Shown here one piece after another: positions 9,180 through 64,000 of a stretch of 64,000 nt of DNA (positions are counted from its first letter, which is position 1; each line of letters starts with the position of its first letter). The position numbers were made by a program, and so were the translations under genes. The DNA is from a bacterium. Lineage in GTDB: Bacteria; Patescibacteriota; Patescibacteriia; Patescibacteriales; GWE2-39-37. The stretch covers positions 1,955 to 65,954 of the forward strand of contig JBAWWA010000002.1 of assembly GCA_037146995.1 (NCBI GenBank), given 5' to 3'. Below the pieces are notes generated by a model, which saw only the letters and a list, made by a program, of their open reading frames with translations, did no database searches and had not been told where the DNA came from.

Positions 9180-11327
9180 TTAGCTAACTTTAAAATAGTC
9201 ATCCTGGGGAAATAATTTTGACCCAGCCTTATGTAAACTCTTAACTTTCAGTTTATCACCTTTGGTCTTGTATACCTCGATTTCGAGCTTAAGCCAATCA
9301 ACGTCCATGGGATCTAACCTTTTACCGGTTTTTATATACTCCAAAGCCATATCCAGCTGACCAAGCATAATAGATGTGTCAGCGGATTTCTTATAGACCA
9401 GCTTTTCCTCGCGTATAACCATGGTTCGATGCTCTAGATTCATCATTTTGTCAGTCGTATTTGGATAGAGCTTTATGGCATTATTATAGTGTATTATGGC
9501 CCTTGAGAAATCACCCACCCGATAATTTAGATCACCCCAAGCTAGCTCGACTAAGGCATAACCGCCAGTATTTTTTTTAAGCTGACTAAATTTATCATTT
9601 ATGAGCAAAAATAGCTGGCTCTGGCCGCTAGGTAAGCCTGGTGGCAACAATCTGGTCAAAACCATCAAGGTGCTTAATTTTGCCCTAAAGGTCTGCGGCT
9701 CGTTATCAGTATTTAATATTTTTTTTAACAGTAAATCAAAAGCATTTTTATCAATCACGCCCGAATCGAGATAGCTTAAGGTAGTAGCTAATAACTCAGC
9801 CCGGTAAAAACCCTCAAATTGGTTGGAAGGTGCTGTGACAGTAATTTTATTTGCCCAAACAAGATAGTCGTTTTGGTTGCGAGCCAGGTTAAGCTGACGA
9901 AAATAATGACTTGCCATGATGCCTTGAATATAAATAAAAGAGAGATAACCGAGGAATGGCAATATTATTATTAAATAATAACTCCGCTGCCCAAGAGTAA
10001 TGACCTGGCGCTCACTAACCAAGGCTAAAATTATTCCCAAAGTCAAAGCCAAATAACTGGCCGTTACGATAGTAATAAATGAAAACAATAAACTAACCAA
10101 AAAACCCAAGAGAGCAAGTAACAACAATTTAACCACTTTTTGCTCCTGCAAATCAAGGCGAGTTTTATATGCTTGCTTAATAACTCTTAGAACAAACCAG
10201 GCCAATATTAAAGCTACACTAAAAGTCACCAAGCCTGACTCAAAAATAAAATCGAGAAAAATATTATGCAGTCTGTCAGGATTGGCATTTATGGCCTCGA
10301 CAATTGCCCAACTGCCATTATAATAGCGATACAAATAAAGCTCTTGCGTGTCCTGACCATACCCGAGTAAGGGTTTTTTGGAAATTAAGTCTAAGCCGCT
10401 CCGGTAAAGCCCAAACCTATACGTCCCCTGATTTAAGCTAAAAGTGCTTAAAACACGATTACCAACCGAGCTATAATTAATAAAAATATTTTCACTGGCC
10501 GTATTTTTGGTTATTAAAAAACCAGCAGTCATGGCTAGCAACAAAAATGTCAACAAACAGACTGAATAAAGTATCCATTTCTTTGCCTTAAATTGCCTCA
10601 AATAAAAAATAAAACTGACCAATACGGCTGCAAATAAACCAAGCCAACCGCTACGACTTAAAGTAAAAACAAGCGTTAGCAACTGTAACAACCACGAGAT
10701 TAAATAAAGAAACTTTAATTTGCTCTTAGTTACTAAATACCCCCACCAACTAAAAGCTAGACTAAAGAGTAAATATGCTGCCAAATAATTTGGCTGACCT
10801 AAAGTGCTGGCCGCTCGCAGACGCACCGGGTCAAATATTTCATACTCATAAAAATCTAGACCGGCCACCTGAAGTAAACCATAGATACTAACCAAACTAG
10901 CCGCAGCAGTCAGGGCAAGCAAAAAATATCTTAATTTTTCTTGAATTAATGGCCACCAAGCAAATACTAAATATAATAATAACCACAGCTCGAGCTCTAA
11001 AAAAAAGCCAAAACCTCGCATGGCGGAACCAAAAAAGGCGACGCTGCGAAATTCAGAATTGCATGCGCTCAAAAATCTTAGTGTAAAATATAATGCCCAA
11101 AGGTACAGCAACTTTTTATTTTGCGGCAAGACAAGTTCTTTGGTTAAAAAACTTTTCACTACAAACAATAGTGCTAGCCAAAAAATAAATACGCTAAAGA
11201 CGAAAATTTTAAATAATTCAAAAGAGTGCCAAATTTGCGAATTAAAAACCAAGGGCAAAGCAAAAAAACCAGCGCTTAAGCTAATAATTATTAAATGATT
11301 AATTTTTGAAATTATTTTTTCCTGCAT
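9180..11327 (-). CDS. O-antigen-ligase (Wzy_C) family membrane protein with C-terminal TPR repeats; candidate pilin O-glycosyltransferase
   Basis: About 12 TM segments. LSRSGWLGL motif typical of Wzy_C/O-antigen ligase/PglL/TfpO. C-terminal TPR-like YNNAIKLYP region. Gene immediately downstream of the pilin gene. Confidence 0.7.
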   Translation of the reverse strand: MQEKIISKINHLIIISLSAGFFALPLVFNSQIWHSFELFKIFVFSVFIFWLALLFVVKSFLTKELVLPQNKKLLYLWALYFTLRFLSACNSEFRSVAFFGSAMRGFGFFLELELWLLLYLVFAWWPLIQEKLRYFLLALTAAASLVSIYGLLQVAGLDFYEYEIFDPVRLRAASTLGQPNYLAAYLLFSLAFSWWGYLVTKSKLKFLYLISWLLQLLTLVFTLSRSGWLGLFAAVLVSFIFYLRQFKAKKWILYSVCLLTFLLLAMTAGFLITKNTASENIFINYSSVGNRVLSTFSLNQGTYRFGLYRSGLDLISKKPLLGYGQDTQELYLYRYYNGSWAIVEAINANPDRLHNIFLDFIFESGLVTFSVALILAWFVLRVIKQAYKTRLDLQEQKVVKLLLLALLGFLVSLLFSFITIVTASYLALTLGIILALVSERQVITLGQRSYYLIIILPFLGYLSFIYIQGIMASHYFRQLNLARNQNDYLVWANKITVTAPSNQFEGFYRAELLATTLSYLDSGVIDKNAFDLLLKKILNTDNEPQTFRAKLSTLMVLTRLLPPGLPSGQSQLFLLINDKFSQLKKNTGGYALVELAWGDLNYRVGDFSRAIIHYNNAIKLYPNTTDKMMNLEHRTMVIREEKLVYKKSADTSIMLGQLDMALEYIKTGKRLDPMDVDWLKLEIEVYKTKGDKLKVKSLHKAGSKLFPQDDYFKVS

Positions 11328-12384: not shown

Positions 12385-13662
12385 TTAAATATAACGATCT
12401 AGTTTTAAAATATTATTAAACGCTAGCTCACCAGACAAGGCCTTAATCAGAGCATCCTGTCGCAAACTAACCAAGGTAGTGTCGTCTATTAAATCAATCA
12501 ATCGATATTGGCCAGTCTTATTAATTAAGCCATTTTTAAATTTCTTGTTAATCTGCGCAAATTCCACCAAGTCGGTCAGTCCTGTTAAGCCACTATTTTG
12601 ACATGACACACAACCGACGCCCTCGACAAAATGCCACTCCGAAGATATCAATTTAGCGAAAACTATTTTTGCCTTAACTGGCAAGTTATTGATTTCAGGC
12701 TGAATTAGATCTTTAGCTTGACTATCAATGTTAATAACTTGACGACATTTTTGACACACCTTTTCAATTTCTCTGACGACTAACACCCCACCAACCACCA
12801 AAAACCATAAATCTAGGTCGATATTTTGATGTCTTACAAATCTAAAAACATCATTTAAGCCATCAAAAATCATGCCGATAAAAACCTTCTTGCCGGCGAG
12901 TGCCAAATGAAGCGCAAAGTCAAGCTCAGCCGTGGTTTTTAATTCATCGATAATTATCACATCAAAATCCTGGGCCATCACCGCTCTCAGAGCAGTATCA
13001 CAAGTAAAACCAATTTCTGGCCTGATTTGTAATTGTTCAATCTTAGTAACATTTTTAGAGACATAATACTCAATCGATACCGCTTTTTCATTTTCACTTA
13101 AATTACTCAAGGCCAGAGAAAATAGGTAATCTTTGCGTTTTTCCACTTGCTTGCAAGTTACTATCGTGGCTGCCAGATTTTTCTTTAAATACTTGTCCAA
13201 AACCGCTTTGGTGAAATTATTAACTGGTAAGTCAGTAATTTTTTTATCTAGGTTATGATTAATATTAATCACCAAGCGAGATTCAGTTTGTGACAATTTA
13301 ATCCACGAAGCGTTTAAATAGTACTGGCGACCGTCTTGCTGATAAACTAGACGACTCAACTGAGGAAGCTTGTGTTGACTCTCGAAATCAAAATAATTAA
13401 CAACATAATTAAGTAATTCCAAAAATCTCACCCGATCGAATGCATAAACTATTCTTAATTTACCCTGATGACGGAACCTGATATTGCCGCCATTTTTTTG
13501 AAATTCAAAATGAATGGCCGTCACCGACTCATTGATCGCCGTGTCCACCACAACACCAAACAATCTATCGATTGCCAAATCAAAAAAATCCAACCGATGC
13601 AAATTTTTTGGAGTTATCGTTTCTAGGTTTTTTTTAGTTTTTTTTGCCAGAATTTTTGGCAT
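12385..13662 (-). CDS. PilB/PilT/GspE-family secretion-ATPase homologue with degenerate Walker A, Asp-box and His-box (probable pseudo-ATPase)
   Basis: Conserved TAIHFEF (SDIHIEP-like) and RFRHQG motifs, Walker-B-like DVIIIDEL and C-terminal tetracysteine CQKC...CVSC are present. No GxxGxGK[ST] anywhere in the 425 aa: the position reads TCKQVEKRKD. Confidence 0.65.
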   Translation of the reverse strand: MPKILAKKTKKNLETITPKNLHRLDFFDLAIDRLFGVVVDTAINESVTAIHFEFQKNGGNIRFRHQGKLRIVYAFDRVRFLELLNYVVNYFDFESQHKLPQLSRLVYQQDGRQYYLNASWIKLSQTESRLVININHNLDKKITDLPVNNFTKAVLDKYLKKNLAATIVTCKQVEKRKDYLFSLALSNLSENEKAVSIEYYVSKNVTKIEQLQIRPEIGFTCDTALRAVMAQDFDVIIIDELKTTAELDFALHLALAGKKVFIGMIFDGLNDVFRFVRHQNIDLDLWFLVVGGVLVVREIEKVCQKCRQVINIDSQAKDLIQPEINNLPVKAKIVFAKLISSEWHFVEGVGCVSCQNSGLTGLTDLVEFAQINKKFKNGLINKTGQYRLIDLIDDTTLVSLRQDALIKALSGELAFNNILKLDRYI

Positions 13663-13664
13663 AT

Positions 13665-14711
13665 TTATTCAAATCTATCAAGAGCTAAGCCTGCCGCCAC
13701 TGACAATCTAGGACTGATTTCAGTCAAAAGCGGCTTAAGCTCCAAAGGATACGAGATATGTGACCAAGAATCACCAACTATTACATTCATATTTAAAATA
13801 CGCGAAAGATAATTGGCCAAATTTGAAATCAAAGCTGAGCCGCCAGTTAGGATTAATTTTTCTACCTTCTTGTCACCTCGTCCCTGATAAAGGCCTATTA
13901 AATATTTTATCTCATTAACCAAAGGACTTAGAGACTCTTGAATAGTTTCAGATATTTGCGAATCAGCCGAATCGATAGCACTAATGCCCAGATCAAACTT
14001 CAGTTGCTCTGCTTCTTCCAGGCTAATGCTCATTTTTTGCGCCAAAATCTTTGACAAATTATCACCACCAATCTCAATGCTACGATTTAAAAAAGGTATG
14101 CCGCGTTCGATAATCGATACGTTAGTGGTTGTTGCACCAAATTCAGCAATCATAATCGTTGTCTTGTCGCGACCCATCAAGGCCCTGATCAACGAAAATG
14201 TTTCTGACTCAAGGTTTATTAATTTTAATTTGGCTTTTTTAAAAATATCTTGATACTTGGTAACCAGTACACGCGGAGCCGCAATAACAAAAATCTTTAA
14301 AAGTTCTCGGTTATTTTCCAAACGAGACTCGATCAAGCGCCATTCTAGAACTACATCTTCGATCGGTACCGGTAAAACTTTTTTAGTTTCCCATTCGACT
14401 GCTTGGTCAATCTTTTCCTTGTCGATATCAATCAGATTTATAATTGAAGAAAAAACCGAATAAGCCGGGAGCGAAGCCACGACTGAAGTCGCCTTCATGC
14501 CTGCCTGCGCAATAGTCTTGACTATCAATTCAGCAATTTTATCATTATCATTTCTCCATTTAACTTCAGCATCAGGTGTCAAATTTTCACTAAAGCCATA
14601 ACTTAGCAGCTTGGCCTGATCGCCTACCTTGGTTAATTCAACAATTTTTACACCAGAACTGCCCATATCGATACCAAGGTATCCGGTTTCAGGTGAAGAT
14701 AATATTCCCAT
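13665..14711 (-). CDS. pilM: type IV pilus assembly protein PilM (actin-like ATPase fold)
   Basis: N-terminal GIDMGSSGVKIVEL phosphate-1 motif. 348 aa. FtsA/PilM-like organisation. Head of the pilus gene string. Confidence 0.8.
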   Translation of the reverse strand: MGILSSPETGYLGIDMGSSGVKIVELTKVGDQAKLLSYGFSENLTPDAEVKWRNDNDKIAELIVKTIAQAGMKATSVVASLPAYSVFSSIINLIDIDKEKIDQAVEWETKKVLPVPIEDVVLEWRLIESRLENNRELLKIFVIAAPRVLVTKYQDIFKKAKLKLINLESETFSLIRALMGRDKTTIMIAEFGATTTNVSIIERGIPFLNRSIEIGGDNLSKILAQKMSISLEEAEQLKFDLGISAIDSADSQISETIQESLSPLVNEIKYLIGLYQGRGDKKVEKLILTGGSALISNLANYLSRILNMNVIVGDSWSHISYPLELKPLLTEISPRLSVAAGLALDRFE

Positions 14712-22181: not shown

Positions 22182-22430
22182 GTGAATACTAACATTGACA
22201 ATGAAGACGAAGTTGATCGATCGATCATGACAGAATTTACGATTTTTAATGTATGCGCTTTTTGCGGTAACTTAAACTTCAAAGAAATCGATCCGAAAGA
22301 TTGTTCACTTTGCGGCACTGGCAGAGTCGAAATAGAGATAATTATCCAAAATATTTTAATCAGACAGGCAAAAATTGCAGCTCAGGTGAAAACAAGCCCA
22401 TGCAAAGTTTGCAACAACCATCATCCCTAA
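22182..22430 (+). CDS. small Cys-rich zinc-ribbon-like protein (82 aa)
   Basis: CAFC...CSLC...CKVC pairs. No known family recognised. Confidence 0.4.
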   Translation: MNTNIDNEDEVDRSIMTEFTIFNVCAFCGNLNFKEIDPKDCSLCGTGRVEIEIIIQNILIRQAKIAAQVKTSPCKVCNNHHP

Positions 22431-23257: not shown

Positions 23258-24301
23258 TCAATTTTTTGAATTCAAAGTTTTTCTATCAATTAAGCTAAAA
23301 CCAACAATAATCAATATCATAGTTACAAATAATCCAATCAAAGCCATTATTTTACCACGACTTTGCAGAAATAAAGCAGACAAACCAAAAACCAAAGAAA
23401 AAGTGTAAAATATTAAAACTGTCAGGCGTTGGCCAAGGCCCAGGTCATATAAACGATGATGCAAGTGCTTTCTGTCAGCGGAACGAAACGGATTCTGACC
23501 ACCGAGTAAACGACGCAGTATTGTCCAACAGACATCAAGAATTGGAATACCCATAATCAACAAAGCAACAGCAAATTTACCGCCAGAGATTATGGCCAAG
23601 ACCCCTAAGGCATAGCCCAAAAATAATGATCCACCCTCACCTAAAAATATTTTTGCCGGATGAAAATTCCATAATAAAAAACCAAATATCGAACCAGCCA
23701 ATACAAGTGAGGCTAAACTGATATCCGGCTGAAAATAATGTGGCGTCAAGGTAAACAAAAAAATAATAATCGCACCAATACCTGAAACACCTGAAACCAG
23801 GCCATCCATGCCATCTAACAGCTTAGTCGTATACATCATACCCAGTAACCACAAGGTAATCAGTATTGGCGACCAATAGCTCAAATAAAAATAACCTCCG
23901 AAAGGACTTGAAACTCTTTCGATCTCAACCCCGCCCAAAATAACTGACACAATCGCCAAAACCGGAAAAATAAATTGCCAGCTTGGCTTTAAATTGTATT
24001 TGTCATCCAAGACACCACCCAACATAATTAATAAACCGCCAACAAAAAAACCAATATAATGACTAGGGCGAAGCATGGTCTGATCAAGTAAATGACTGCG
24101 TAAAAAAAACAGTACCAAAAAAAAGCTTAAAAAAACGGCACAACCACCAAGTAGTGGCATAGCACCCGTATGAATTTTTCGATCATCCGCCGGAATATCT
24201 AAAATTTTAAAGTACTTGGCAATTTTAATAGTTACCCAGGTCAAAAAAAATGACAGCAAAACTGTAAATAAAAAAGTATTAGAATAAAATAAATATGTCA
24301 T
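23258..24301 (-). CDS. MraY/WecA-family polyprenyl-phosphate N-acetylhexosamine-1-phosphate transferase
   Basis: About 10 TM helices. Cytoplasmic loop with DGMDGL and ...HLHHRLYDLGL motifs typical of the MraY/WecA/Rfe family. Confidence 0.75.
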   Translation of the reverse strand: MTYLFYSNTFLFTVLLSFFLTWVTIKIAKYFKILDIPADDRKIHTGAMPLLGGCAVFLSFFLVLFFLRSHLLDQTMLRPSHYIGFFVGGLLIMLGGVLDDKYNLKPSWQFIFPVLAIVSVILGGVEIERVSSPFGGYFYLSYWSPILITLWLLGMMYTTKLLDGMDGLVSGVSGIGAIIIFLFTLTPHYFQPDISLASLVLAGSIFGFLLWNFHPAKIFLGEGGSLFLGYALGVLAIISGGKFAVALLIMGIPILDVCWTILRRLLGGQNPFRSADRKHLHHRLYDLGLGQRLTVLIFYTFSLVFGLSALFLQSRGKIMALIGLFVTMILIIVGFSLIDRKTLNSKN

Positions 24302-27036
24302 AATGACTTTGCTTTTTCTATTGTTGCTTCACCCTCATCATTTATAACCAAGATGTCACGACGCCTTAAATCGCCAGATAAAATATTATCAGCAATTTTA
24401 TTTTCTATCCTATCTTGCAACAAACGACGGAGTGGTCTGGCACCAAACTTAACATCATAACCCAATTTTGACAAGATTTTTACACCGGCCTCCGAATATC
24501 TCAAGCCAATCCCCTTCGCAGCTAAATTTTTACCAATTTTATCGAGTGACAACTTAGCAATAGAAAAAATATCGTTTTCAGTTAGGGGTTTAAAGACTAT
24601 TAAGCCATCAAAGCGATTTATCAGTTCTGGCCGCATAATCTGATTCAGGTGCTCGTTAACAAGAATTTCTTTTATCGCCTCCAGGGCGGTATTCTTTTTT
24701 ATCTCAGCTTGAATAAAATTTGCGCCGGCATTGGAAGTGGCAATGATAATACAATTAGTAAAATCAATGGTCTTGCCTGCGCCATCGGTTAAGCGCCCAT
24801 CGTCCATGACTTGTAAAAATAAATTCAGAATATCAGGATGCGCCTTTTCAAATTCATCCAGGAGTAGCAAACAGAAAGGTTTTTTTCTGACTGCCTCCGT
24901 TAAATAACCTTTATCATCTTCTGAAGTGCCGATCATTTTAGAAATTGAACCCTGATTCTGATATTCACTCATGTCTATTCTTACCATATATTGCTCCCCG
25001 CCAAAATAGGTTTTGGCCAAAGTCTTGGCTAACTCAGTTTTACCGACACCAGTCGGACCCAAAAATAAAAAACTGGCAATCGGTCGTTTACCTTCAGTTA
25101 ATTGAGTTCTTGCCCGTCGCAAACTTGCCGCAATCATATCAACCGCCTCCGTCTGCCCAATCATGAACTGATGCATATTCTCCTCCAGTTTTAACAACTC
25201 CTTACCCTCACCTGCCCCAACCTTGGTTAACAAAATCCCGGTTTGCTCGCTAACAATTTTTGCCACTGACTCTTTATTAATAAGACCCTTGGTTTTACTG
25301 TTGTGACTAACTGCTAAAGCATTCAATACGGCAATGGCCTTCTCTGGCAAATAACGATCATGTTCATATTTAGCCGTCATTACCACGGCTGCCTCGATGG
25401 CGCTGTATGCGAATCTCACATTATTCATACCTTCCAACTGTGAAATTTTACTTTCAAGCATTTCAATGGCCTGATTGATAGTCGGCTCTGTCACAACCAC
25501 TTTTTGCATAATATTATCGATCGGCTTACCCTCAATGTATTTACTATAACTTGTAGTCGATACAGTAGCTAGACAAATTAAATTAGCTTGTTCTAGTGAA
25601 TTAACTAAGACATCCGCCAAATCAAGACTCGCCTCGCTACCAGAGCTAATACCGACGATAGTTTCGATATTATTTACGACGATAATAATATTGGTCGCAA
25701 AAACCACTTCAGTTAACATCGCCAAAAGTCGCTCCTCGGCTTGCGCCGGATTAACACCACTGATCAAACGGGAGACATCAAGTTCGACCAAACGCTTATC
25801 TCTAAGTATTTCTGGTACGGTTTCGGCTACCATTAATTGAGCAAGTCCTCCAATGATATTTTTTTTACCAACCCCTTCATCACCAACCAAGAGCACACCC
25901 TTTTTACCAGATTTTAAGGCATCAAAAATGGCTATCATTTCTGATTCACGAGCCACGCAAATCGGTAAAGAAAAATATTTTGCAGCCTTGGTCAAATCAT
26001 GACTTAAAGTATTAAGCAGAGGCGTAGCCTGGGCCGTATAGGCCCTGTCCATGTTACTAGCAGGCTTAAAACGTGACAACTCTTTATATTGCTGATAATT
26101 TTCTATCAAATGGTCATTAATCCTAAACCAATTAACCGCATTTTTTACTTGCAATAAACTAATTTCGGCATCAAGGAAGAGCTCGGTTATAATTTGATCA
26201 AGCTCATAAAGGCCTGGCAAGACGTTTATCACCTTTACCCGAGCCTGCCCTAAGTAGTAAGCACTGAAATAACCATCCAACAAAGCCTGACGCAAGGCCA
26301 CGCTAAAGCTTGGAGTGCCTGATCTGGTCGGTAATTTAATTAATTGATTTTTAATTTTCGCTGCAAAATCACTCGCGTTCAATTCTAAGCGATAAAATAA
26401 CACCCTAACTTCATAATCTTTTAAAGCTGCATACAAGAGATGAAGCGGCTCAACCTCTAGGTGATTCATTTTTTGAGCCAGTAAAAAAGCATTATCGATC
26501 ACATCAAGGGCTCTCAGACGATAAGCATTAGCAATATTAATTTTCTGCTCACGACCAAGCTTACGCAGGTTTAGATTTATAACATCCAAATCATTCGCCG
26601 CCAAATCACCTTGCCCTGACTTATAAATAATCATCTGCCGACTAGCAATATTGAAACTAATCCTAAATGTCAAATACATTGCACAAAATAAGCCCAACCA
26701 AAAATAAAGTAAATAAGGGCTTTTTTGAGACCAAAAATTTAAGATTAAATAAATATCAGCCTTATTTTCAAATAACCAAAATATCAAACCACCTAAACCC
26801 AAAAGAGCGCTACCAAAAAGAAACAAATCAACAAATAAGCTAAGTATTTTTTTGAGTCGCCACAAATAAATTGTCGGGGGATTTATTGCGGCTTGCCAAA
26901 AGAACAAACGACCATTGAATAGATAAGCCAAGCCCGTGCCAGAGCACTCCCTGCATCGGCCATGCCTAACATTGAGACCCGTGCCGTGACAAGCCTGACA
27001 ATCGATTTTGGTGGTTTTTATTTCAGTTTTAAACAT
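24298..27036 (-). CDS. membrane-anchored Clp-type double-ring AAA+ ATPase with N-terminal DnaJ-like zinc ribbon and degenerate D1
   Basis: N-terminal CQACHGTG...CRECSGTG, two TM helices, and Clp_N-like repeats. D1 has Walker A GDEGVGKKN and Walker B IIVVNN (no DE). D2 has intact Walker A GPTGVGKTELAKTLA, Walker B LLLLDEFEKAHPD, sensor and arginine finger. ATGA overlap with the downstream gene. Confidence 0.75.
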   Translation of the reverse strand: MFKTEIKTTKIDCQACHGTGLNVRHGRCRECSGTGLAYLFNGRLFFWQAAINPPTIYLWRLKKILSLFVDLFLFGSALLGLGGLIFWLFENKADIYLILNFWSQKSPYLLYFWLGLFCAMYLTFRISFNIASRQMIIYKSGQGDLAANDLDVINLNLRKLGREQKINIANAYRLRALDVIDNAFLLAQKMNHLEVEPLHLLYAALKDYEVRVLFYRLELNASDFAAKIKNQLIKLPTRSGTPSFSVALRQALLDGYFSAYYLGQARVKVINVLPGLYELDQIITELFLDAEISLLQVKNAVNWFRINDHLIENYQQYKELSRFKPASNMDRAYTAQATPLLNTLSHDLTKAAKYFSLPICVARESEMIAIFDALKSGKKGVLLVGDEGVGKKNIIGGLAQLMVAETVPEILRDKRLVELDVSRLISGVNPAQAEERLLAMLTEVVFATNIIIVVNNIETIVGISSGSEASLDLADVLVNSLEQANLICLATVSTTSYSKYIEGKPIDNIMQKVVVTEPTINQAIEMLESKISQLEGMNNVRFAYSAIEAAVVMTAKYEHDRYLPEKAIAVLNALAVSHNSKTKGLINKESVAKIVSEQTGILLTKVGAGEGKELLKLEENMHQFMIGQTEAVDMIAASLRRARTQLTEGKRPIASFLFLGPTGVGKTELAKTLAKTYFGGEQYMVRIDMSEYQNQGSISKMIGTSEDDKGYLTEAVRKKPFCLLLLDEFEKAHPDILNLFLQVMDDGRLTDGAGKTIDFTNCIIIATSNAGANFIQAEIKKNTALEAIKEILVNEHLNQIMRPELINRFDGLIVFKPLTENDIFSIAKLSLDKIGKNLAAKGIGLRYSEAGVKILSKLGYDVKFGARPLRRLLQDRIENKIADNILSGDLRRRDILVINDEGEATIEKAKSL

Positions 27037-27406
27037 TGAAATTTATAATTAAGCCCTTTATCAGGACAACTGGTAAAACCAACCACCCAGCCAAGAATAA
27101 TAGAGACAAAAAAACCCAAACCATCATTATGCTGCCCCGGAAAGCAATCTGCAGGCTTCGTATAAACAAACTTATTAAACGGCTAAAGATGTCCGTTTGG
27201 CCAAACATGGGGGTAAAAAGATTGGTCACCCAAACTAATAAGCCAAGACTGCTTTCACGGTGACTTAAAAATTCAAAAACAAACTTTATAGCGCCAAAAA
27301 AACCAATTGAATACCACCATAATGGAAAAATGGCTAAATTTAGCAAATTATTATAAAGTAAACTGTCCCTGCGAAGTGTATGATTCATTGCTGTATTATA
27401 ACACAA
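27029..27406 (-). CDS. polytopic small membrane protein (125 aa)
   Basis: 3-4 hydrophobic helices. 8-nt overlap with the start of the Clp-type gene. Confidence 0.45.
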   Translation of the reverse strand: MCYNTAMNHTLRRDSLLYNNLLNLAIFPLWWYSIGFFGAIKFVFEFLSHRESSLGLLVWVTNLFTPMFGQTDIFSRLISLFIRSLQIAFRGSIMMVWVFLSLLFLAGWLVLPVVLIKGLIINFNV

Positions 27407-27479
27407 AACATCAAAATACTAAAAGTTCTTAAAAATACCTCAAATCTTGATAATTATCAGTAGGATGTAATTATTTTAC

Positions 27480-54013: not shown

Positions 54014-55675
<1,662 letters not shown>

Positions 55676-55734: not shown

Positions 55735-56022
55735 CTAAGAAATAATGGCAACAATGTCACTCTCCCTGACAATCAAATAATCTTCACCATTAACTTTAAT
55801 CTCATTGGCTGAATATTTTTTGAACATGACCTGATCACCAGCAGCAACACTCAAAATGGATTTTTGACCATTATCAAGCTGTTTGCCATCACCGACGGCT
55901 ACCACCACACCTTTTTCTGGTTTGTCTTTGCTTAAAGTATCAGGCAAGACAATGCCCGATTTCGTCACCTCTTCTGTTAAGGCTTTAATAACAACATAAT
56001 CATAAAGTGGTTTGATATTCAT
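55735..56022 (-). CDS. groS: co-chaperonin GroES
   Basis: [14 protein letters not shown]...mobile loop...GDQVMFKKY. Start taken at the internal ATG of the ORF-track entry. Confidence 0.9.
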
Positions 56023-56095
56023 ACATTTTGGAACCCATCTTGGCATATTTACTACCAATATTAATGGGCTAAAATTAAATAATTAATTAGACTTA

Positions 56096-56122
56096 TTAGC
56101 ACTCAAACAATGAGAGTGCTAA
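56096..56122. promoter_or_regulatory. CIRCE operator (HrcA binding site) upstream of groES-groEL
   Basis: TTAGCACTC-aaacaatga-GAGTGCTAA: perfect CIRCE consensus inverted repeat with 9-nt spacer. Confidence 0.9.
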
Positions 56123-57670: not shown

Positions 57671-59224
57671 TTACATGTCAGTACCGGAATAACTCAGGTT
57701 AAGCGATTTGTTGCACAGCGGAAAGTCTGGTACGATATTGCCCGGACCGATGATGCCAAAGGTGGCCCAATTACAAAATGATGGATCACGCGGAAAACAA
57801 CGCTCAATCTGGCCGTTTCTTATTACTACAGCACAGAGAACTTCACCCCGCCATGACTCGGTTGCGCCAATAGCGTAACCATCTCTCGGTGTGCAATTAA
57901 CGCTATACTCACCGGTCGGCATTTGATCAATTAAAATATTAATGAGTCGCACTGTTTCGTTTAATTCATCTAGACGCGCCGTAAATCGCGCATGAACATC
58001 ACCAGCCGTTTTTACAACCACTTTAACCGGAAATTTCGCGTAAGCAGCGTGCGGAAAATCGCGCCGAACATCACGATCAACCCCGGAACTTCTAGCTGGC
58101 AATCCCAGTGCGCCAAAGGCCTTGGCCGCTTCCAATGGCAAAATTCCAGTTGTCTGCAAACGATCCATAAAACCTTCTGAGGACAAAGCAGTCGTTGTTA
58201 TTTCCTTGATCTCGGCAAAAGCCTCATTAACAACTAGCTTGATACGAGCCAACTCGGAGGTGGTAAAGCTTTTAGAAACACCCCCTGGCAAAATCAAACC
58301 TCGCCAAAATCGATTACCAAGCACTTCCTCTGACAAACGCATTAGACGTTCTTTGACTCGAAAACCATTGGCCGCAATAAAACTAAAGCCTGTGCCCATA
58401 CCGCCAATATTAGCAATGTCGTGAACATGCATCGTCAAGCGTTCAAGTTCAGCAACTAGCGTTCTTAAAATCAAGGCCAGTTCAGGCACATTAACGTTGG
58501 CAAGAATCTCTACGGCCTGACAATAGGCCAAAGCATTGGCAGCCGCCATATCACCAGACAAGCGCTCAATAAATTTCAAACCCTCAACCGGAGTTTTGCC
58601 TTCTAAAAGCTTCTCGACGCCTTTGTGAGTAAAGAAAAGCTTGCCCTCTAAAGTAATAATACGCTCGCCTGCCACATTAAATCTAAAATGACCAGGCTCA
58701 ATAATACCCGCATGAATCGGTCCGACTGGAATTTCAAAAATCCCCTCGCCTTTGACATGGCCCATCGGATATGGCTCATTGGCATGTTCAAGTTTTTTAT
58801 TCCAAATAAAATCTTTTCTTAATGGGTGAGTAGCATTAGGAATATTTTCATGATTAACCAAACGACGCAAATCTGGATGGCCATCCGGCACCACACCGAA
58901 CATGTCATGACTATAGCGTTCATACCAATGTGCGGCCATAATCGTCGCAGTAATCGACGGATAATGAGGGTGACTAGCACTCACCTCCGCACGCAGTTCG
59001 AGCCGCTCATGACTCTCGTCTAGACTAAATACTGCATGAACTGTGTAGCATTTTTTTTCAGCCCGTTCATCGGTCACAAACATTAACGATAATGGCAGGT
59101 CATATTCATTCACCAAAGCAGTCGCTATTTTAGCTATATCATCACTGTTAACCGTAACACAATATATGTTGGCCAGGAGTTCTGCCTTAAGTTGTAATTT
59201 TGACAAAATTTCTAAAGCTTTCAT
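57671..59224 (-). CDS. fused NuoC/NuoD-like (HycE-like) large-subunit homologue lacking all [NiFe]-binding cysteines
   Basis: N-terminal 30-kDa-subunit motif HWYERYSHDMFGVVPDGHPDLRRL. Large-subunit motifs GPIHAGIIEPGHFRF. The L1 site reads ERLSGDMAAANALAY (canonical R-x-C-G-x-C). The C-terminal L2 site reads NLSYSGTDM (canonical D-P-C-x-x-C-x-x-H/R). Confidence 0.8.
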   Translation of the reverse strand: MKALEILSKLQLKAELLANIYCVTVNSDDIAKIATALVNEYDLPLSLMFVTDERAEKKCYTVHAVFSLDESHERLELRAEVSASHPHYPSITATIMAAHWYERYSHDMFGVVPDGHPDLRRLVNHENIPNATHPLRKDFIWNKKLEHANEPYPMGHVKGEGIFEIPVGPIHAGIIEPGHFRFNVAGERIITLEGKLFFTHKGVEKLLEGKTPVEGLKFIERLSGDMAAANALAYCQAVEILANVNVPELALILRTLVAELERLTMHVHDIANIGGMGTGFSFIAANGFRVKERLMRLSEEVLGNRFWRGLILPGGVSKSFTTSELARIKLVVNEAFAEIKEITTTALSSEGFMDRLQTTGILPLEAAKAFGALGLPARSSGVDRDVRRDFPHAAYAKFPVKVVVKTAGDVHARFTARLDELNETVRLINILIDQMPTGEYSVNCTPRDGYAIGATESWRGEVLCAVVIRNGQIERCFPRDPSFCNWATFGIIGPGNIVPDFPLCNKSLNLSYSGTDM

Positions 59225-59231
59225 ATATTTT

Positions 59232-60692
59232 TTAACTTAAATTTTTTATAATATCAACCACGAAGCCAGTGCCACTTGACGATGTAAACCAAACACCCAA
59301 CAAGATAACTGCAATTATATGAACCAACATGACACTGTGAGTAATATTCCAGTGCTCTCGTGTCTCATTTAAATCAGTAGTATTTGCTTTTTCCAAAATC
59401 ATACCAATTGTCGTTCTTAGCATGCCAAAGGCAATAACACCAAGGGCAATGAAAACCGCGATTGACAGATACAAATGAGCTTTGATCATTGCCGAAAAGA
59501 GCGTAAATTCACTAACAAATAATATTGACGGTGGCATTGCCACAATAAAAATTATCCCGATTAAAAACAAAGAGCTCGTATAGGGCGCATACTTTAACAA
59601 GCCGCCAACTTTAGTTGTGTCAGTTGTTTTATAGCGCAACAGTATTTCACCAGCTCCAAAAAATAATCCAGATTTTATGATTGAATGACCAATCATATGG
59701 ATAACTGCAGCCATTACGCCGATAGGCGGCAAGGCCAAGCCTAGGGCAATCAAGCCCATGTGCTCAATACTTGAATAGGCGAGCATCCTTTTGTAATTCC
59801 TTTGCACGAGCAACATAAAGGCTGGTAATACGACCGACAAGATACCGAAAAATAAAAAGAATTTACCAGTCCATTCACTCCCGCCTATGGCCTGATTAGC
59901 AATCATTTGAAAACGAATAATCGCATACAAAGCCACGTTTAACAATATGCCAGAAAACAAGGCCGAGATTGGCGATGGCGCCTTGCTGTGGGCATCTGGT
60001 AGCCACGTATGGATTGGCGCGAAACCGACTTTAGCACCAAAACCCACAAAGATAAAAACAAAAGCCCATTTTACAAGCTCCGGCGACAAGGCGCTAGTAT
60101 TCTTCAATAAATCACTGATCAAAAAACTAACTGATTGATCTGCCCCAGCCTGCGATGTATAACCGAGTAAAAGTATGCCAATCAAACCTAAAGTAATACC
60201 AGTTGAGCAAATAATAATATATTTCCAAGCAGCCTCAAGTGATGAGCGCTTGCGATAAAGACCAACCAAGAAGGTCGAAGATAAAGTTGTTGCTTCTAGA
60301 GCCAACCACATAATCAAAGTATTATTAGTGACAACGACTAAAAACATTGCCATCACGAACAAAGGTAGCAAAGTGAAATATAATTTTAGATCATTGATTT
60401 TCACCTCTCCATCCTTAAATTCATGACCAATATAGCGCACACTAACAATAGTGGCACTTAAAGATAATAAAGCGATTAGACTAGCAATCAAGGCTCCGAA
60501 TCTATCCAAATAAAACCACTCAGTAATTAAAACCTCTGTGCCAAAAAATTGTGGTGAGACGAATAACCAAATTGTCAAAGCAGAAGCGATGGATACAGCA
60601 CCAGCCGACAAACGAATGATTTTTTCGTTTTTTTGCACCACAGCAAGAATGACTGCCAAACTAAAAAGTCCAAAGATAAATAAAATATTCAT
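59232..60692 (-). CDS. NuoN/NuoM/MrpD-family antiporter-like membrane subunit
   Basis: 14 TM helices. Hallmark ...GFAPIHTWLPDAHSKAPSPISAL. Confidence 0.85.
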   Translation of the reverse strand: MNILFIFGLFSLAVILAVVQKNEKIIRLSAGAVSIASALTIWLFVSPQFFGTEVLITEWFYLDRFGALIASLIALLSLSATIVSVRYIGHEFKDGEVKINDLKLYFTLLPLFVMAMFLVVVTNNTLIMWLALEATTLSSTFLVGLYRKRSSLEAAWKYIIICSTGITLGLIGILLLGYTSQAGADQSVSFLISDLLKNTSALSPELVKWAFVFIFVGFGAKVGFAPIHTWLPDAHSKAPSPISALFSGILLNVALYAIIRFQMIANQAIGGSEWTGKFFLFFGILSVVLPAFMLLVQRNYKRMLAYSSIEHMGLIALGLALPPIGVMAAVIHMIGHSIIKSGLFFGAGEILLRYKTTDTTKVGGLLKYAPYTSSLFLIGIIFIVAMPPSILFVSEFTLFSAMIKAHLYLSIAVFIALGVIAFGMLRTTIGMILEKANTTDLNETREHWNITHSVMLVHIIAVILLGVWFTSSSGTGFVVDIIKNLS

Positions 60693-60693
60693 A

Positions 60694-62289
60694 TTATTCG
60701 GTTAAATTTCTCAATTCCTCGGTATCCACTGAACCGTAAAAATACTTAATTCGTGAACCAAGAAGCGAAAGAATTAAAGCTGTTAAAGCGGTGACGGTAA
60801 AAACACCCATCTCAATTATTAACGGCAATGACTTGACTGTCACAAGCGTAAATATGGCGATACCATTTTCAACAACAAGCAGACCGATAATTTGAGAAAA
60901 AACATTTCTATGGACAATCATAGTGGCAAGACCCAAAACTAGCAGCCCAACTGAAGCAAACAATAAACTACTCCACTCAACCAAGGCAAAAATTGGCGTC
61001 TTTTGAACAATAAAAAATACAAAGACTAAAAGTAGCGCTGCCAAAAGATAGCTTGAAGCCGGTCTCAAGAAAGACTGTAAATTCGCCGTATGTCGCTGTT
61101 GTTTTTCCATTATCTTAATAACGTATGGCACTAACAGGACTTTTACGGCGATCGTTACAACAGCGAAAATCAATAAATGAGTCTGCTCTTCTGGGGCCAT
61201 TAAGGCAAGACTATAGGCAATGCCTGCAATCATTAATGATGAGGCTGCATAATATCTAAGTATTGATTTCAATCTTAACCGACCGAAGAGTAACACCACA
61301 AAGAAAACCGACATAGCAGCAAAGACAGTATAATATTTTATATCAGGTCCGGTAAGTTTGACATATACAGCCACCATCATGCCAAAAAAAGCCGTAAAAA
61401 AAGCCAAGGATAAATATTCAGGCATCCTATAAAACCTCATTTTAACTATGGTCATTTCTAACCAACCCAGCAAGACGGCAACCATAGAAACCTTAAGGAT
61501 TGCCAAAAGTATAGCCAAAATACCACCACCGACACTAAGACTAAAAATCGTTACAGGCGGAAAAACAAAATTCGCAATTAAAATTGAAAAGGCTGCTAAT
61601 TTTATTGCCGAAGCGTATTCTAGCAAGGCCAAATAGCGACCAGAATATTCAAGAATCATGGCCTCATGAACCATAGTTAACTCAAGATGCGTTGCCGGAT
61701 TATCAACAGGATAACGTGCATTTTCAGCCAGTGAGACCAAGACAAAGGCAATCATTAAAATTATCAAATGCGGGGCACTAAAAATTAAAGACTGCGCAAA
61801 CATACCATCAAGCTGAAAAGAGCCTGTCACAAAAGCTAAAGCACCAAATATCAAAATAACAGTTGGCTCAATCAACGAGGCCAGAGTCATTTCACGCGAT
61901 GAGCCCATGCCCCCAAAAGCGCTAGCGGAATCTAGACCGCCCAAAACCAAAAAGATCGAGCCAACAATCATAAAGGCTGCTACCACCAAAAAATCACTAG
62001 CGAAAGCCAAGGCACCACCACTAAAAACTAAGGGCAATATAAAAGCCAAGGCTATTGTCGAGGCTAGTACCACAAAAGGTACGGCCCTAAAAACCCAAGA
62101 AGTGGATTTTGAGATAACCATTTCTTTCTTGAGTAAAGTCAAGATCGTATAATAGGGCAAAAATGGCGAAGCTCCGCGTCTGCCCTGCAATCGAGCCTTG
62201 GTAAACCTAACCAGACCGACAGAAAATGGTGCTACCAACAATATGGTCAGGCCTTGCAATATTGTAGCTAAAATTTGAAATGAGTTCAT
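60694..62289 (-). CDS. NuoH/HycD-like membrane subunit fused to a C-terminal ~200-aa polytopic extension (HyfE/NuoK-like?)
   Basis: N-terminal LLVAPFSVGLVRFTKARLQGRRGASPFLPYYTIL matches the NuoH/HycD signature. Total 531 aa versus about 310-330 for NuoH. C-terminal third has about 6 extra TM helices. Confidence 0.7.
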   Translation of the reverse strand: MNSFQILATILQGLTILLVAPFSVGLVRFTKARLQGRRGASPFLPYYTILTLLKKEMVISKSTSWVFRAVPFVVLASTIALAFILPLVFSGGALAFASDFLVVAAFMIVGSIFLVLGGLDSASAFGGMGSSREMTLASLIEPTVILIFGALAFVTGSFQLDGMFAQSLIFSAPHLIILMIAFVLVSLAENARYPVDNPATHLELTMVHEAMILEYSGRYLALLEYASAIKLAAFSILIANFVFPPVTIFSLSVGGGILAILLAILKVSMVAVLLGWLEMTIVKMRFYRMPEYLSLAFFTAFFGMMVAVYVKLTGPDIKYYTVFAAMSVFFVVLLFGRLRLKSILRYYAASSLMIAGIAYSLALMAPEEQTHLLIFAVVTIAVKVLLVPYVIKIMEKQQRHTANLQSFLRPASSYLLAALLLVFVFFIVQKTPIFALVEWSSLLFASVGLLVLGLATMIVHRNVFSQIIGLLVVENGIAIFTLVTVKSLPLIIEMGVFTVTALTALILSLLGSRIKYFYGSVDTEELRNLTE

Positions 62290-64000
62290 AAAGCGATACT
62301 TAAAGCAACAATTAAGGTTGCCAATAACAAAAGTAAATAATACTGAATCCTGCCGCTTTGGATTAATTTAACTCTAAGCGATAAAAAATTCATAAATTTC
62401 TCAATGGGCAGATACACGCTACTCTTCCAGGCAGAACTAATTAAAAGCGAAAATGAATAATTACGAATCCAGGGATTAGTGACCACAACTGGCTCGCTAG
62501 TAATTAATTTGTTTCTGCCAATTAAATTGAGGAAAAAAAATCTGATCGGCGCCGAAAAAGCGGCTGCTGTATATTCCATAGTTGAATTTATCGGCTGTCC
62601 GCAATCCCAGGTATGATATGAACGCTCTTTTTTATTTAGCGCAAAGAAGTAATTCAAAAGATAGGCAAATAGTAAAAAACCTAAAACGACGGACAATAGT
62701 TGCATAGATGATATAGAGCCAATGGCATTTTCCGTAATCAATTCAGAACTATTTAATACATTGGAAATAATGCTAATAAAATAATTTGCAAAAATACCAA
62801 TACTTAAAACACCAAGTGCTAATCCGGCAATCGGCCAAACTAAAAGTCCATCACCTAACTCAGACTTTATTTCATGCTCACGATACCTTGGCAAGCCCAG
62901 CATAGAAATAGCAAAAATCTTGATCATCGCAAAAACAGCTAAACCCCCGATCAAACCGATTACTGATAAAATTAGAACCACAATTGGCAATAGCATGCCA
63001 CCGGCTTGAGACATTAAACTAATAGCCACATGAATCAAGCCCCATTCGCCATAAAAAGTACCGAACGGCGGAATTGGTAACGAACCCATAATAACCAGTA
63101 AAAAGAAAAAAGAAAATAAAGGTAAAGACTTCGCAAAGCCACCCATAAGCTCTAGACTGCGAGAATGGACACGACTAATGACTAAACCACTCGAAAGGAA
63201 TAGGGCCGTCTTAAAGAAGGCATGACTCAAACTATGAATGATAGCAAAAACAATCAAGGGAATAAAATATCTCATTAAATTTGAATGAGCATAGTTTGCT
63301 GTAATATAAATTGCCAAGCCAATAACAGAAAATATAATTCCCATATTTTCAATACTGCTATAGGCAAAAGCCTTTTTCATGTCAGTTTCAATTGCCGCAT
63401 AAAGTGCGCCGACAACACCGGACACAAGCCCAAGAATGATCACCAAGGTGCCAGCCCAGGTTGGCATGTAGGCAAAATTCAAGACCACCATCAAGAAACC
63501 ATAAATCGCCACTTTTAACATCAAGCCAGACATAAGAGCGGAAATATTGCTTGGAGCCTGTGGATGTGCTTCTGGCAACCAAACATGGAGTGGAACAAGT
63601 CCAGCCTTTGAACCAAATCCAAATAAAAACAAACAAAAGGCAGCAGTAGCCAAAGTTGGCGTCAACTGCTGTGTCACTTCTTGAATCATTGATAAATCAA
63701 AAAACAAGGAGCCATTTCCCAATATTAAAAAACCACCTAATATCGCCGAAGCTCCGAGGTGGGTCATAATGAAATACAAGAATGCTGCGTTGAAAGACTC
63801 TTTAGTCTTGTCTGACAATACCAAAAAGAAAGAACTTAGAGACATTACCTCCCAAAAAAACAAGAAAGTAAATGAGTTGTTGGCAAGCAATACTGCCTGC
63901 ATACCAAAAACAAACAATCCCATTAAAAATTGGGTTGTGTATTTGTTATAAGTTTTTTGATACAGATCAAGATATCTAACACTATAAACGCCAACCAAAG
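62286..64000 (-). CDS. NuoL/MrpA/HycC-family antiporter-like subunit (N-terminus lies beyond window end)
   Basis: Hallmark GLVPLHVWLPEAHPQAPSNISAL. ATGA overlap with the next gene. ORF runs to the window edge. Confidence 0.8.
   Translation of the reverse strand, partial: LVGVYSVRYLDLYQKTYNKYTTQFLMGLFVFGMQAVLLANNSFTFLFFWEVMSLSSFFLVLSDKTKESFNAAFLYFIMTHLGASAILGGFLILGNGSLFFDLSMIQEVTQQLTPTLATAAFCLFLFGFGSKAGLVPLHVWLPEAHPQAPSNISALMSGLMLKVAIYGFLMVVLNFAYMPTWAGTLVIILGLVSGVVGALYAAIETDMKKAFAYSSIENMGIIFSVIGLAIYITANYAHSNLMRYFIPLIVFAIIHSLSHAFFKTALFLSSGLVISRVHSRSLELMGGFAKSLPLFSFFFLLVIMGSLPIPPFGTFYGEWGLIHVAISLMSQAGGMLLPIVVLILSVIGLIGGLAVFAMIKIFAISMLGLPRYREHEIKSELGDGLLVWPIAGLALGVLSIGIFANYFISIISNVLNSSELITENAIGSISSMQLLSVVLGFLLFAYLLNYFFALNKKERSYHTWDCGQPINSTMEYTAAAFSAPIRFFFLNLIGRNKLITSEPVVVTNPWIRNYSFSLLISSAWKSSVYLPIEKFMNFLSLRVKLIQSGRIQYYLLLLLATLIVALSIAL

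Follow-up and report, generated by a model that had tools for sequence, protein, structure and literature searches.

What can a Clp/Hsp100-like ATPase do from a membrane anchor when only one of its two AAA+ rings has kept the catalytic residues and neither ring has kept an aromatic pore loop? This question is raised by a gene in a 64,000-nucleotide (nt) stretch of a Patescibacteria genome (contig JBAWWA010000002.1, positions 1,955 to 65,954; the whole stretch is called the window below, and coordinates are counted from its first letter). The gene, which we call clp-like, encodes a protein with two CxxCxGxG motifs in a zinc ribbon, a hairpin of two transmembrane (TM) helices, a Clp N-domain, and a first (D1) and second (D2) AAA+ module, in that order. 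An earlier note, made from the sequence alone, had described the same domain order; the coordinates of the open reading frame (ORF) proved exact and each listed element was found. We favor the reading that this protein is a stand-alone, partner-dependent, membrane-tethered remodelling ATPase, which would be driven by D2 and act on proteins of the envelope membrane without processive threading. We give this reading a probability of roughly 0.5.

24298..27036, minus strand: clp-like gene, membrane-tethered Clp/Hsp100-like ATPase of 912 amino acids (aa), ATG start

Public records (NCBI, JGI, Logan, and ENA) hold an identical protein, for which three carrier contigs were examined, and its sole public annotation is 'AAA family ATPase'. 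Among 5.8 billion proteins searched, 562 were recovered as relatives. Of these, the 120 best are about 860–980 aa long and cover 84–100% of the query, mostly at least 95%, and their named sources are metagenome-assembled genomes (MAGs) of Falkowbacteria, Parcubacteria or Patescibacteria. With D1-specific peptide patterns, a relative was found in 322 GTDB species genomes, and the listed matches are all Patescibacteria. The mean column identity is 58% over the whole protein and 66% over D1, with many invariant residues. Literature searches for membrane-anchored Clp/Hsp100 proteins and for Clp proteins of Patescibacteria and Falkowbacteria gave no description of this family. The protein is best explained as an offshoot of the ClpB/ClpC lineage that is specific to Patescibacteria. 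As a side observation, the three-gene cassette described below also occurs, on contigs of small genomes, in many MAGs titled 'uncultured Gammaproteobacteria bacterium' (loci L007, L016, L017, L020, and other 'binchicken' or 'SRP..._co' loci), a label which is an apparent placeholder.

The two AAA+ rings

The ATPase body of the protein contains the following features, all on the minus strand.

25282..26016, minus strand: D1 AAA+ module, residues 341–585, no M-domain insertion
25861..25884, minus strand: D1 Walker A GDEGVGKK, residues 385–392; the P-loop Lys is retained and is followed by Lys in place of Thr/Ser
25669..25689, minus strand: D1 Walker B IIIVVNN, residues 450–456; Asn-Asn replaces Asp-Glu
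24592..25281, minus strand: D2 AAA+ module, residues 586–815, ATPase motifs all intact
24904..24930, minus strand: D2 pore loop GTSEDDKGY, residues 703–711, truncated and non-aromatic
24355..24585, minus strand: ClpB_D2-small C-terminal domain, residues 818–894

The substitutions in D1 were placed by HMMER alignment to Bacillus subtilis ClpC and by BLASTP to a ClpB-like paralogue of Patescibacteria. Compared with these two proteins, the clp-like protein has GDEGVGKK instead of GEPGVGKT in Walker A, VVNN instead of FIDE in Walker B, N-PAQAE instead of KYRGEFE in the pore loop, and NIM instead of RRF at the Arg fingers. All family-wide residue counts for D1 and D2 were taken from 120 homologues. 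The glycines of the D1 Walker A are invariant and its Lys is present in 113 homologues, while the canonical Thr or Ser follows in 49. At the first acidic position of Walker B (455) there are 60 Asp, 31 Asn and 15 Glu, and at the position of the catalytic Glu (456) there are 105 Asn, 13 Asp and no Glu at all. The invariant residue N449 is distinct from both of these positions. The D1 pore loop is aromatic in none of the 120, and Arg occupies the two finger positions in four homologues and one, respectively. Careful alignment recovered no intact Walker motifs in D1, since the Walker B Glu is missing throughout, and the inactivated first ring that the earlier note had read from GDEGVGKKN and VVNN stands. 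Judged from these residues, D1 is catalytically dead, without ATP hydrolysis. It may still bind nucleotide, because the Walker A Lys is kept. The 66% mean column identity indicates that D1 is under purifying selection and not decaying.

No long ClpB-type middle domain (M-domain) is present, as had been noted. Its position holds 9–14 residues, against about 75 in ClpC and about 134 in the ClpB-like paralogue. Query residues 577–586 bridge a span equal to residues 404–538 of the paralogue, and the AlphaFold2 (AF2) model is without a coiled coil here. In the absence of an M-domain, ClpB-type coupling to Hsp70 is therefore not expected.

D2 has the Walker A motif GPTGVGKT and the Walker B motif LLLLDE. 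The residues K666, T667, D727, and E728, the sensor-1 residue N769, the Arg finger R808, and the sensor-2 residue R867 are each conserved in 120 of 120 homologues, and by these motifs D2 is ATPase-competent. The pore loop of D2 is altered. ClpC has GSPPGYVGYDEGGQLTE at this place and the co-resident ClpB-like paralogues have GSPPGY[IV]GH[DE][DE]GGQLT, whereas the clp-like family has IG[DS]xDGxLGYLTE, which amounts to a 5-residue deletion. The query loop reads GTSEDDKGYLTE. The aromatic position is occupied by Thr, Ala, Val, Ser or Ile, and by an aromatic residue in none of the 120. As an internal control, 21 ClpB-like paralogues from the same loci retain SPPGY[IV]G. We take the retained 'GY' of the clp-like loop to align with the post-loop residue and not with the pore tyrosine, on the assumption that Escherichia coli ClpB reads 'GGYLTEAV' at this place. 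The earlier description of D2 as fully intact is thus right for the catalytic residues and wrong for the GYVG pore loop, which is deleted family-wide.

D2 contains no IGF or VGF loop. The region between TSNAG and PELINRFD is of ClpB length and shows a gap against ...NKYVGFNVQ... of ClpC. Since this loop is missing, no ClpP docking is expected, and coupling to ClpP was rejected. In addition, tblastn with E. coli and B. subtilis ClpP sequences gave no match within the 64-kb window.

The picture of a membrane-tethered protein with a single active ring is therefore borne out by a dead D1, a competent D2, and a TM hairpin that is present family-wide. The term unfoldase in its classical threading sense is undermined by the missing pore tyrosines in D1 and D2. 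Pore-loop tyrosines are important for substrate processing in ClpA, ClpB and Hsp104 (PMC5540906), which makes classical threading doubtful for the clp-like protein.

The N-terminal region and kinship with known ATPases

The region ahead of D1 contains a predicted metal-binding module, the membrane hairpin, a tether, and the Clp N-domain.

26932..27000, minus strand: zinc ribbon, residues 13–35, two CxxCxGxG knuckles, one predicted Zn site
26899..26931, minus strand: conserved beta-hairpin 'GRLFFW', residues 36–46, kept also in members without the cysteines
26773..26847, minus strand: TM helix 1, residues about 64–88; G80 is invariant and W87 nearly so
26656..26718, minus strand: TM helix 2, residues about 107–127; F112 is invariant; predicted to return the chain to the cytoplasm
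26542..26640, minus strand: tether from the membrane hairpin to the N-domain, residues 133–165, poorly conserved and modelled with low confidence
26071..26535, minus strand: Clp N-domain, residues 168–322, eight helices
26017..26070, minus strand: linker motif KPxxNMxRAYTAxATP, residues 323–340, family-specific and nearly invariant; a segment between the N-domain and D1 with a low predicted local distance difference test (pLDDT) score

The ribbon motifs are CQACHGTG (residues 13–20) and CRECSGTG (residues 28–35). The likeness to DnaJ that the earlier note had proposed holds at the level of these two motifs and not at the level of the Pfam family: DnaJ_CXXCXGXG (PF00684) scores 16.1–17.5 bits against a gathering cut-off of 32.7, with two repeats only. 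AF2 places the four cysteines in a ribbon-like beta structure (pLDDT 84–88), in which a zinc site is predicted. The ribbon is optional. Among 69 full-length GTDB members, 48 carry two or more CxxC motifs within their first 90 residues, and the ribbon-less members (about 30%) carry 'GGRGAWFLGRFLFW' instead, with the beta-hairpin kept and the cysteines gone. The substrate-binding role that the earlier note had given to the zinc finger is thus hypothetical, and the family can dispense with the module. Apart from the weak DnaJ and Clp_N matches, a Pfam and NCBIfam scan of the N-terminal 333 aa found no family. PF20030 and PF25199, which appear in the precomputed lists of homologues, were rejected as N-terminal domains because they are P-loop cross-matches in D1 and D2.

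Both candidate TM segments are strongly hydrophobic family-wide and are modelled as helices by AF2, in agreement with the two TM helices of the earlier note. The family-mean KD19 hydropathy is 2.11 for TM helix 1 and 1.94 for TM helix 2, and the Wimley-White sums are −12.8 and −13.6. The mean number of Lys plus Arg across the family is 4.4 before the first helix, 5.8 after the second, and 2.1 in the connecting loop of about 21 aa. The AF2 model (overall pLDDT 83.7, predicted template-modelling score 0.72) has a small beta-ribbon at residues 9–46 and helices at 53–90 and 107–132 (pLDDT 85–95). From the two hydrophobic helices, their K/R-rich flanks, the short loop and the modelled helices, we infer an N-in/C-in topology, in which the ribbon and the ATPase would be cytoplasmic and the N-domain/D1 face would be directed toward the membrane.

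The Clp_N-like repeats were also verified. With the NCBIfam ClpA model the alignment starts at residue 179, the N-domain and first nucleotide-binding domain (NBD1) of Hsp104 (5wbw) align with residues 173–527, and AF2 gives eight helices over residues 168–322 (pLDDT about 90). Pfam Clp_N reaches a sub-threshold 15–16 bits in the query, and a homologue, P0043, passes with 24.4 bits against the cut-off of 20.7. The linker that follows, with the motif itself at residues 324–339, shows conservation like that of a docking or regulatory peptide.

The earlier note had considered that the N-terminal 150 or so residues might be a separate upstream gene joined by a frameshift. When residues 1–340 were used as query against 1.84 billion representatives, just 228 clusters matched, and the full-length matches are about 900 aa long. 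The module is unbroken in more than 100 independent homologues and in independent assemblies. The family has thus conserved it as an integral part of the protein, and a frameshift or fusion artefact was rejected.

By fold and domain order only, the clp-like protein is a Clp/Hsp100 ATPase. Pfam finds AAA_lid_9 (520–583), AAA_2 (651–810) and ClpB_D2-small (818–894). A phmmer search of the PDB gives ClpC and ClpB at about 1e-117, with D1 aligned to ClpC residues 158–396, and Foldseek with the AF2 model gives template-modelling scores of 0.75–0.8 to ClpC and ClpB protomers. Among the features of class I double-ring members, it has the tandem AAA+ modules with AAA_lid_9, the D2-small domain and the double Clp_N domain; it does not have competent Walker A and B motifs in both rings or aromatic pore loops in D1 and D2. 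The NCBIfam scores are far below their cut-offs: 510 bits against 1232.1 for ClpB (TIGR03346, the top match), 449 against 993 for ClpA (TIGR02639), and 328 against 1350 for a second ClpA model (NF008263).

The architecture is not that of a standard ClpA, ClpB, ClpC or ClpE, as the earlier note had argued, and the defining features of each were not found. With ClpB and Hsp104 the protein shares the Clp N-domain, D1 and D2, the ClpB_D2-small domain, and the absence of a ClpP-docking loop, and its D2 sequence is most ClpB-like, with 40% identity to the Patescibacteria ClpB-like paralogue. Unlike these proteins, it has no coiled-coil M-domain and no pore tyrosines, its D1 appears dead, and the zinc ribbon and membrane hairpin are additions. 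It resembles ClpA in having N, D1 and D2 without a long M-domain, and the NCBIfam ClpA model aligns as one piece (179–892). It differs from ClpA, ClpC and ClpE by the lack of the IGF/IGL loop, of the short M-domain of ClpC and ClpE, and of their pore loops, and by the dead D1 and the membrane anchor. The N-terminal zinc-binding module is a likeness to ClpE, but as a DnaJ-type CxxCxGxG pair it is presumably unlike the ClpE type. The CxxCxGxG signature, present twice, also recalls the zinc-finger domain of DnaJ and small DnaJ-like membrane proteins, but DnaJ has four repeats and two zinc centres, whereas the clp-like protein has two repeats, which are missing in about 30% of the family.

The three-gene cassette and its surroundings

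The clp-like gene lies between two other genes on the same strand.

27029..27388, minus strand: small partner gene, about 119 aa, helical-hairpin membrane protein
23258..24301, minus strand: WecA-like polyprenyl-phosphate sugar-phosphate transferase (Glycos_transf_4, GT4), 347 aa
23132..23151, minus strand: terminator-like hairpin and T-run after the GT4 gene, from a consensus scan only

The synteny survey covered 80 GTDB loci. In 69 of the 70 loci with enough sequence, the gene immediately upstream, in the same orientation, encodes a partner homologue; the median gap is 19 nt. The GT4 gene follows the clp-like gene, on its strand, in 57 of 57 loci, with 444 nt as the median gap. The partner stop and the clp-like ATG overlap by 8 nt in the window, and the clp-like stop and the GT4 ATG overlap by 4 nt, so that the cassette is read as translationally coupled. 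Six loci from contigs that encode relatives have the same arrangement. The trio is kept across at least three flanking contexts, namely clpB and queH (17 loci), nusG and rplU (11 loci), and another gene and queH (8 loci). The hairpin after the GT4 gene likely marks the end of a three-gene operon.

The partner family comprises 241 clusters, all annotated as hypothetical, and its sole named taxon is Patescibacteria. Its 23 invariant residues include those of FPxWWY and PMxGQxD, and neither Pfam nor NCBIfam has a family for it. AF2 predicts a helical hairpin (pLDDT 84), for which Foldseek found nothing significant in the PDB (best E-value 1.9); a likeness to WRB/CAML was dismissed as noise (E-value 3.9). 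Homologues align from the ATG at 27388, so that the TTG at 27406, where the mechanical ORF begins, is probably not used. A TGnTATAAT-like box, 'tgttataat' (window 27389-27410, minus strand), ends 6 nt before this ATG and points to a 5' leader of the partner gene that is very short or missing.

The best NCBIfam match of the GT4 protein is WecA, with 118.7 bits, below the cut-off, and an assignment as MraY was rejected by the same search. As a WecA-like transferase it would catalyse the initial membrane step in a pathway for an envelope glycopolymer or for glycosylation. GT4 is unusually conserved, with 64% identity against 49% for the clp-like protein. We also observed the motif GE[GS]GS, which reads 'IFLGEGGS' in the window, in GT4 of 58 out of 61 loci, at a position where MraY and WecA enzymes presumably have GDxGS. 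In about 10 loci the stop-to-stop ORF at the GT4 position exceeds 480 aa, and in L004 and L006 the called gene is Glycos_transf_4 plus QueH, an apparent fusion with epoxyqueuosine reductase. In some loci an opposite-strand ORF of 88–94 aa without a Pfam match lies between the clp-like and GT4 genes (L003:9010-9276, L004:8651-8932, L006:8762-9046; minus strand, locus coordinates). It is not present in the window, where the two genes overlap.

The ClpB-like paralogue, which has a full-length M-domain, adjoins in 19 of 49 related loci (for example L002:6837-9476, minus strand; L004:2378-5026; L006:2861-5548). It scores 1200.8 bits with TIGR03346, slightly below the cut-off of 1232. All 19 parsed sequences have 'IGF' at the position of the ClpP-docking loop, and this paralogue could be a ClpB/ClpC hybrid that would couple to Hsp70 and also dock ClpP. 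Because the IGF is conserved in this neighbouring paralogue of related genomes, there is a hint that ClpP exists in the clade.

Heat-shock control of the clp-like operon by HrcA and the CIRCE operator (controlling inverted repeat of chaperone expression) was considered and rejected. A perfect CIRCE, TTAGCACTC-N9-GAGTGCTAA (window 56096-56122, plus strand), lies ahead of groES (55735-56058) and groEL (54014-55669, both minus strand), and no CIRCE with up to 3 mismatches was found near the clp-like operon. HrcA-type heat-shock control therefore exists in the genome, with CIRCE at groES-groEL and the clp-like operon not covered.

Other genes in the window relate to the membrane and envelope. Patescibacteria are usually described as lacking respiratory complexes, which makes a complex-I/Mrp-like membrane module (57671-63998, minus strand) notable; it consists of a NuoC and NuoD fusion, a NuoH-like protein, and two Proton_antipo_M subunits, and may be group-4 hydrogenase-like or of the Mrp type. 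Further envelope machinery was observed at 12385-14711, with type IV pilus genes for PilM and a T2SSE-family ATPase, and at 9180-11327, where a Wzy_C/O-antigen-ligase-like protein of 715 aa contains TPR repeats (both minus strand). An 82-aa CxxC-rich ORF just after recR (22182-22430, plus strand), also a gene call in a Logan contig, has no Pfam match and is another orphan zinc-ribbon-like protein.

Possible modes of action

In the reading that we favor, the helical hairpin would anchor each protomer to the cytoplasmic membrane, and the predicted hexamer would show its N-domain/D1 face to the membrane on tethers of about 35 residues. Nucleotide binding at NBD1 supports hexamerisation of ClpA and ClpB (PMC5540906), and for this reason D1 would likely serve as a static assembly ring, possibly ATP-bound, with D2 as the only motor. 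The conserved, translationally coupled synteny suggests that the ATPase and the upstream membrane protein of about 120 aa act as a unit, in which this protein would be an obligate partner, and that the unit has a functional tie to the downstream WecA-like transferase. In the least certain step, D2 hydrolysis would most likely drive a cycle of conformational remodelling or release on membrane-embedded partners or clients, by a Torsin-like logic. We prefer remodelling to threading because neither ring has its pore tyrosine and because the loop of D2 is short, as well as hydrophilic and variable.

Torsins are related to Clp/Hsp100 proteins, are membrane-associated, lack aromatic pore loops and rely on membrane cofactors (PMC5425593). 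The clp-like protein has similar properties: kinship in the Clp/Hsp100 D2, an N-terminal hydrophobic membrane segment, no aromatic pore loops, and what appears to be a dedicated membrane partner. Torsins differ in being single-ring and luminal and in having no Arg finger of their own, which the AAA-like LAP1 and LULL1 supply, whereas the clp-like protein has its own R808 and R867, an extra dead D1 and N-domain, and a helical-hairpin partner without an AAA fold. The resemblance would be one of working logic and not of membership, and no homology beyond the general Clp kinship was shown. NSF and PEX1-PEX6 offer a parallel for the division of labor, with one non-hydrolysing structural ring and the other ring as the motor, but they belong to the classical AAA clade, keep functional pore loops in the active ring, and are not membrane-integral.

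Several observations weigh against the favored reading. The residue after the D2 aromatic position (709) is Leu in 84 of the 120 homologues and otherwise Lys, Arg or Gln, and non-aromatic pore loops could still move a chain. An entry face directed toward the membrane, if the predicted topology is right, is the geometry expected of an extractase. Unlike Torsins, D2 owns its Arg finger and sensor-2 and needs no cofactor for catalysis. The GT4 gene often lies about 0.4 kb from the clp-like gene, sometimes with the antisense ORF between them, and common descent within a single phylum-level clade can account for part of such synteny.

Part of these observations would fit an unfoldase or extractase that threads its substrates and serves membrane-protein quality control, the role that the earlier note had proposed. 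In such a role D2 would pull damaged or mislocalised proteins from the bilayer via the channel, like Msp1 or like FtsH minus its protease, after capture by the zinc ribbon and N-domain. FtsH and Msp1/ATAD1 have an N-terminal TM anchor that sets the substrate-entry face of the hexamer at the membrane, and the tether would place the N-domain/D1 face in the same way. The invariant D2 catalytic residues, the retained Clp N-domain, the DnaJ-type CxxCxGxG motif and the common Leu in the D2 loop are also in favor of extraction. However, FtsH and Msp1/ATAD1 belong to the classical AAA proteins, with one ring and aromatic pore loops, their sequences are unrelated outside the AAA core, and FtsH carries a protease domain. 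The canonical tyrosines are missing in 120 of 120 homologues, the D2 loop is 5 residues shorter and varies (Thr/Ala/Val and then Leu/Lys/Arg/Gln, with EDDKG in the query), and substrate processing by ClpA, ClpB and Hsp104 relies importantly on the tyrosines of both rings (PMC5540906). Moreover, about 30% of the members have no zinc ribbon, there is no protease-partner loop, and the operon lacks the heat-shock operator that groESL has in perfect form. Quality control is a serious rival explanation, but we consider it the weaker and a somewhat doubtful one, as the synteny with the partner and GT4 points to a more specific envelope role. Such a role might be that of a dedicated regulator or assembly factor of the WecA-like transferase or its pathway, where the ATPase would cycle on a partner/GT4 complex without unfolding polypeptides and lipid-linked glycan initiation would be switched on or off. 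The invariable downstream position of GT4 with its start/stop overlap in the window, the persistence of the trio while its flanks change, the unusual conservation of GT4, its family-specific GE[GS]GS motif and the loss of the pore loops would all suit this role. Yet GT4 is less tightly linked than the partner, as the larger median gap and the occasional antisense ORF indicate, a Clp/Hsp100 protein that controls a GT4 enzyme without proteolysis has no known precedent, and the co-location may be mere co-expression of envelope housekeeping genes. We regard this role as unlikely.

It is very improbable that the gene is an artefact of a frameshift fusion or a functionless, pseudogenised ClpB paralogue. 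The degenerate D1 motifs and the variable Thr/Ser position of Walker A could be read in this way. Against it stand the identical protein in four public resources and on three contigs, the N-terminal module common to more than 100 full-length homologues, the relatives in 322 species genomes, the mean column identities of D1 and of the whole protein, and the invariant catalytic residues of D2. The remodelling ATPase can also be taken a step further, as a bacterial counterpart of the Torsin principle, in which threading was abandoned and D2 together with the partner would gate or remodel the GT4 step of envelope glycopolymer synthesis. This extension is speculative and we hold it to be improbable. 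If true, it would be an unrecognised AAA+-controlled module of envelope biogenesis specific to the ultra-small Patescibacteria.

Clp/Hsp100 proteins are textbook threading motors with two active rings, tyrosine pore loops, and an M-domain or a ClpP-docking loop. The clp-like family has discarded those four features and has gained an anchor and a dedicated partner in the membrane, while strong purifying selection maintains the scaffold in hundreds of species of Patescibacteria. Most worth pursuing are the missing pore loops of both rings and the conserved three-gene module, and the sizes of the ATPase and the partner suit heterologous expression and cryo-electron microscopy. If substrates are still translocated, the family would show the extent to which drift in pore-loop chemistry is tolerated. 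If they are not, it would be a prokaryotic non-threading Hsp100 derivative with a logic comparable to that of the eukaryotic Torsins. Either way, it marks a conserved but uncharacterised module, associated with the envelope, in organisms about whose cell biology almost nothing is known.

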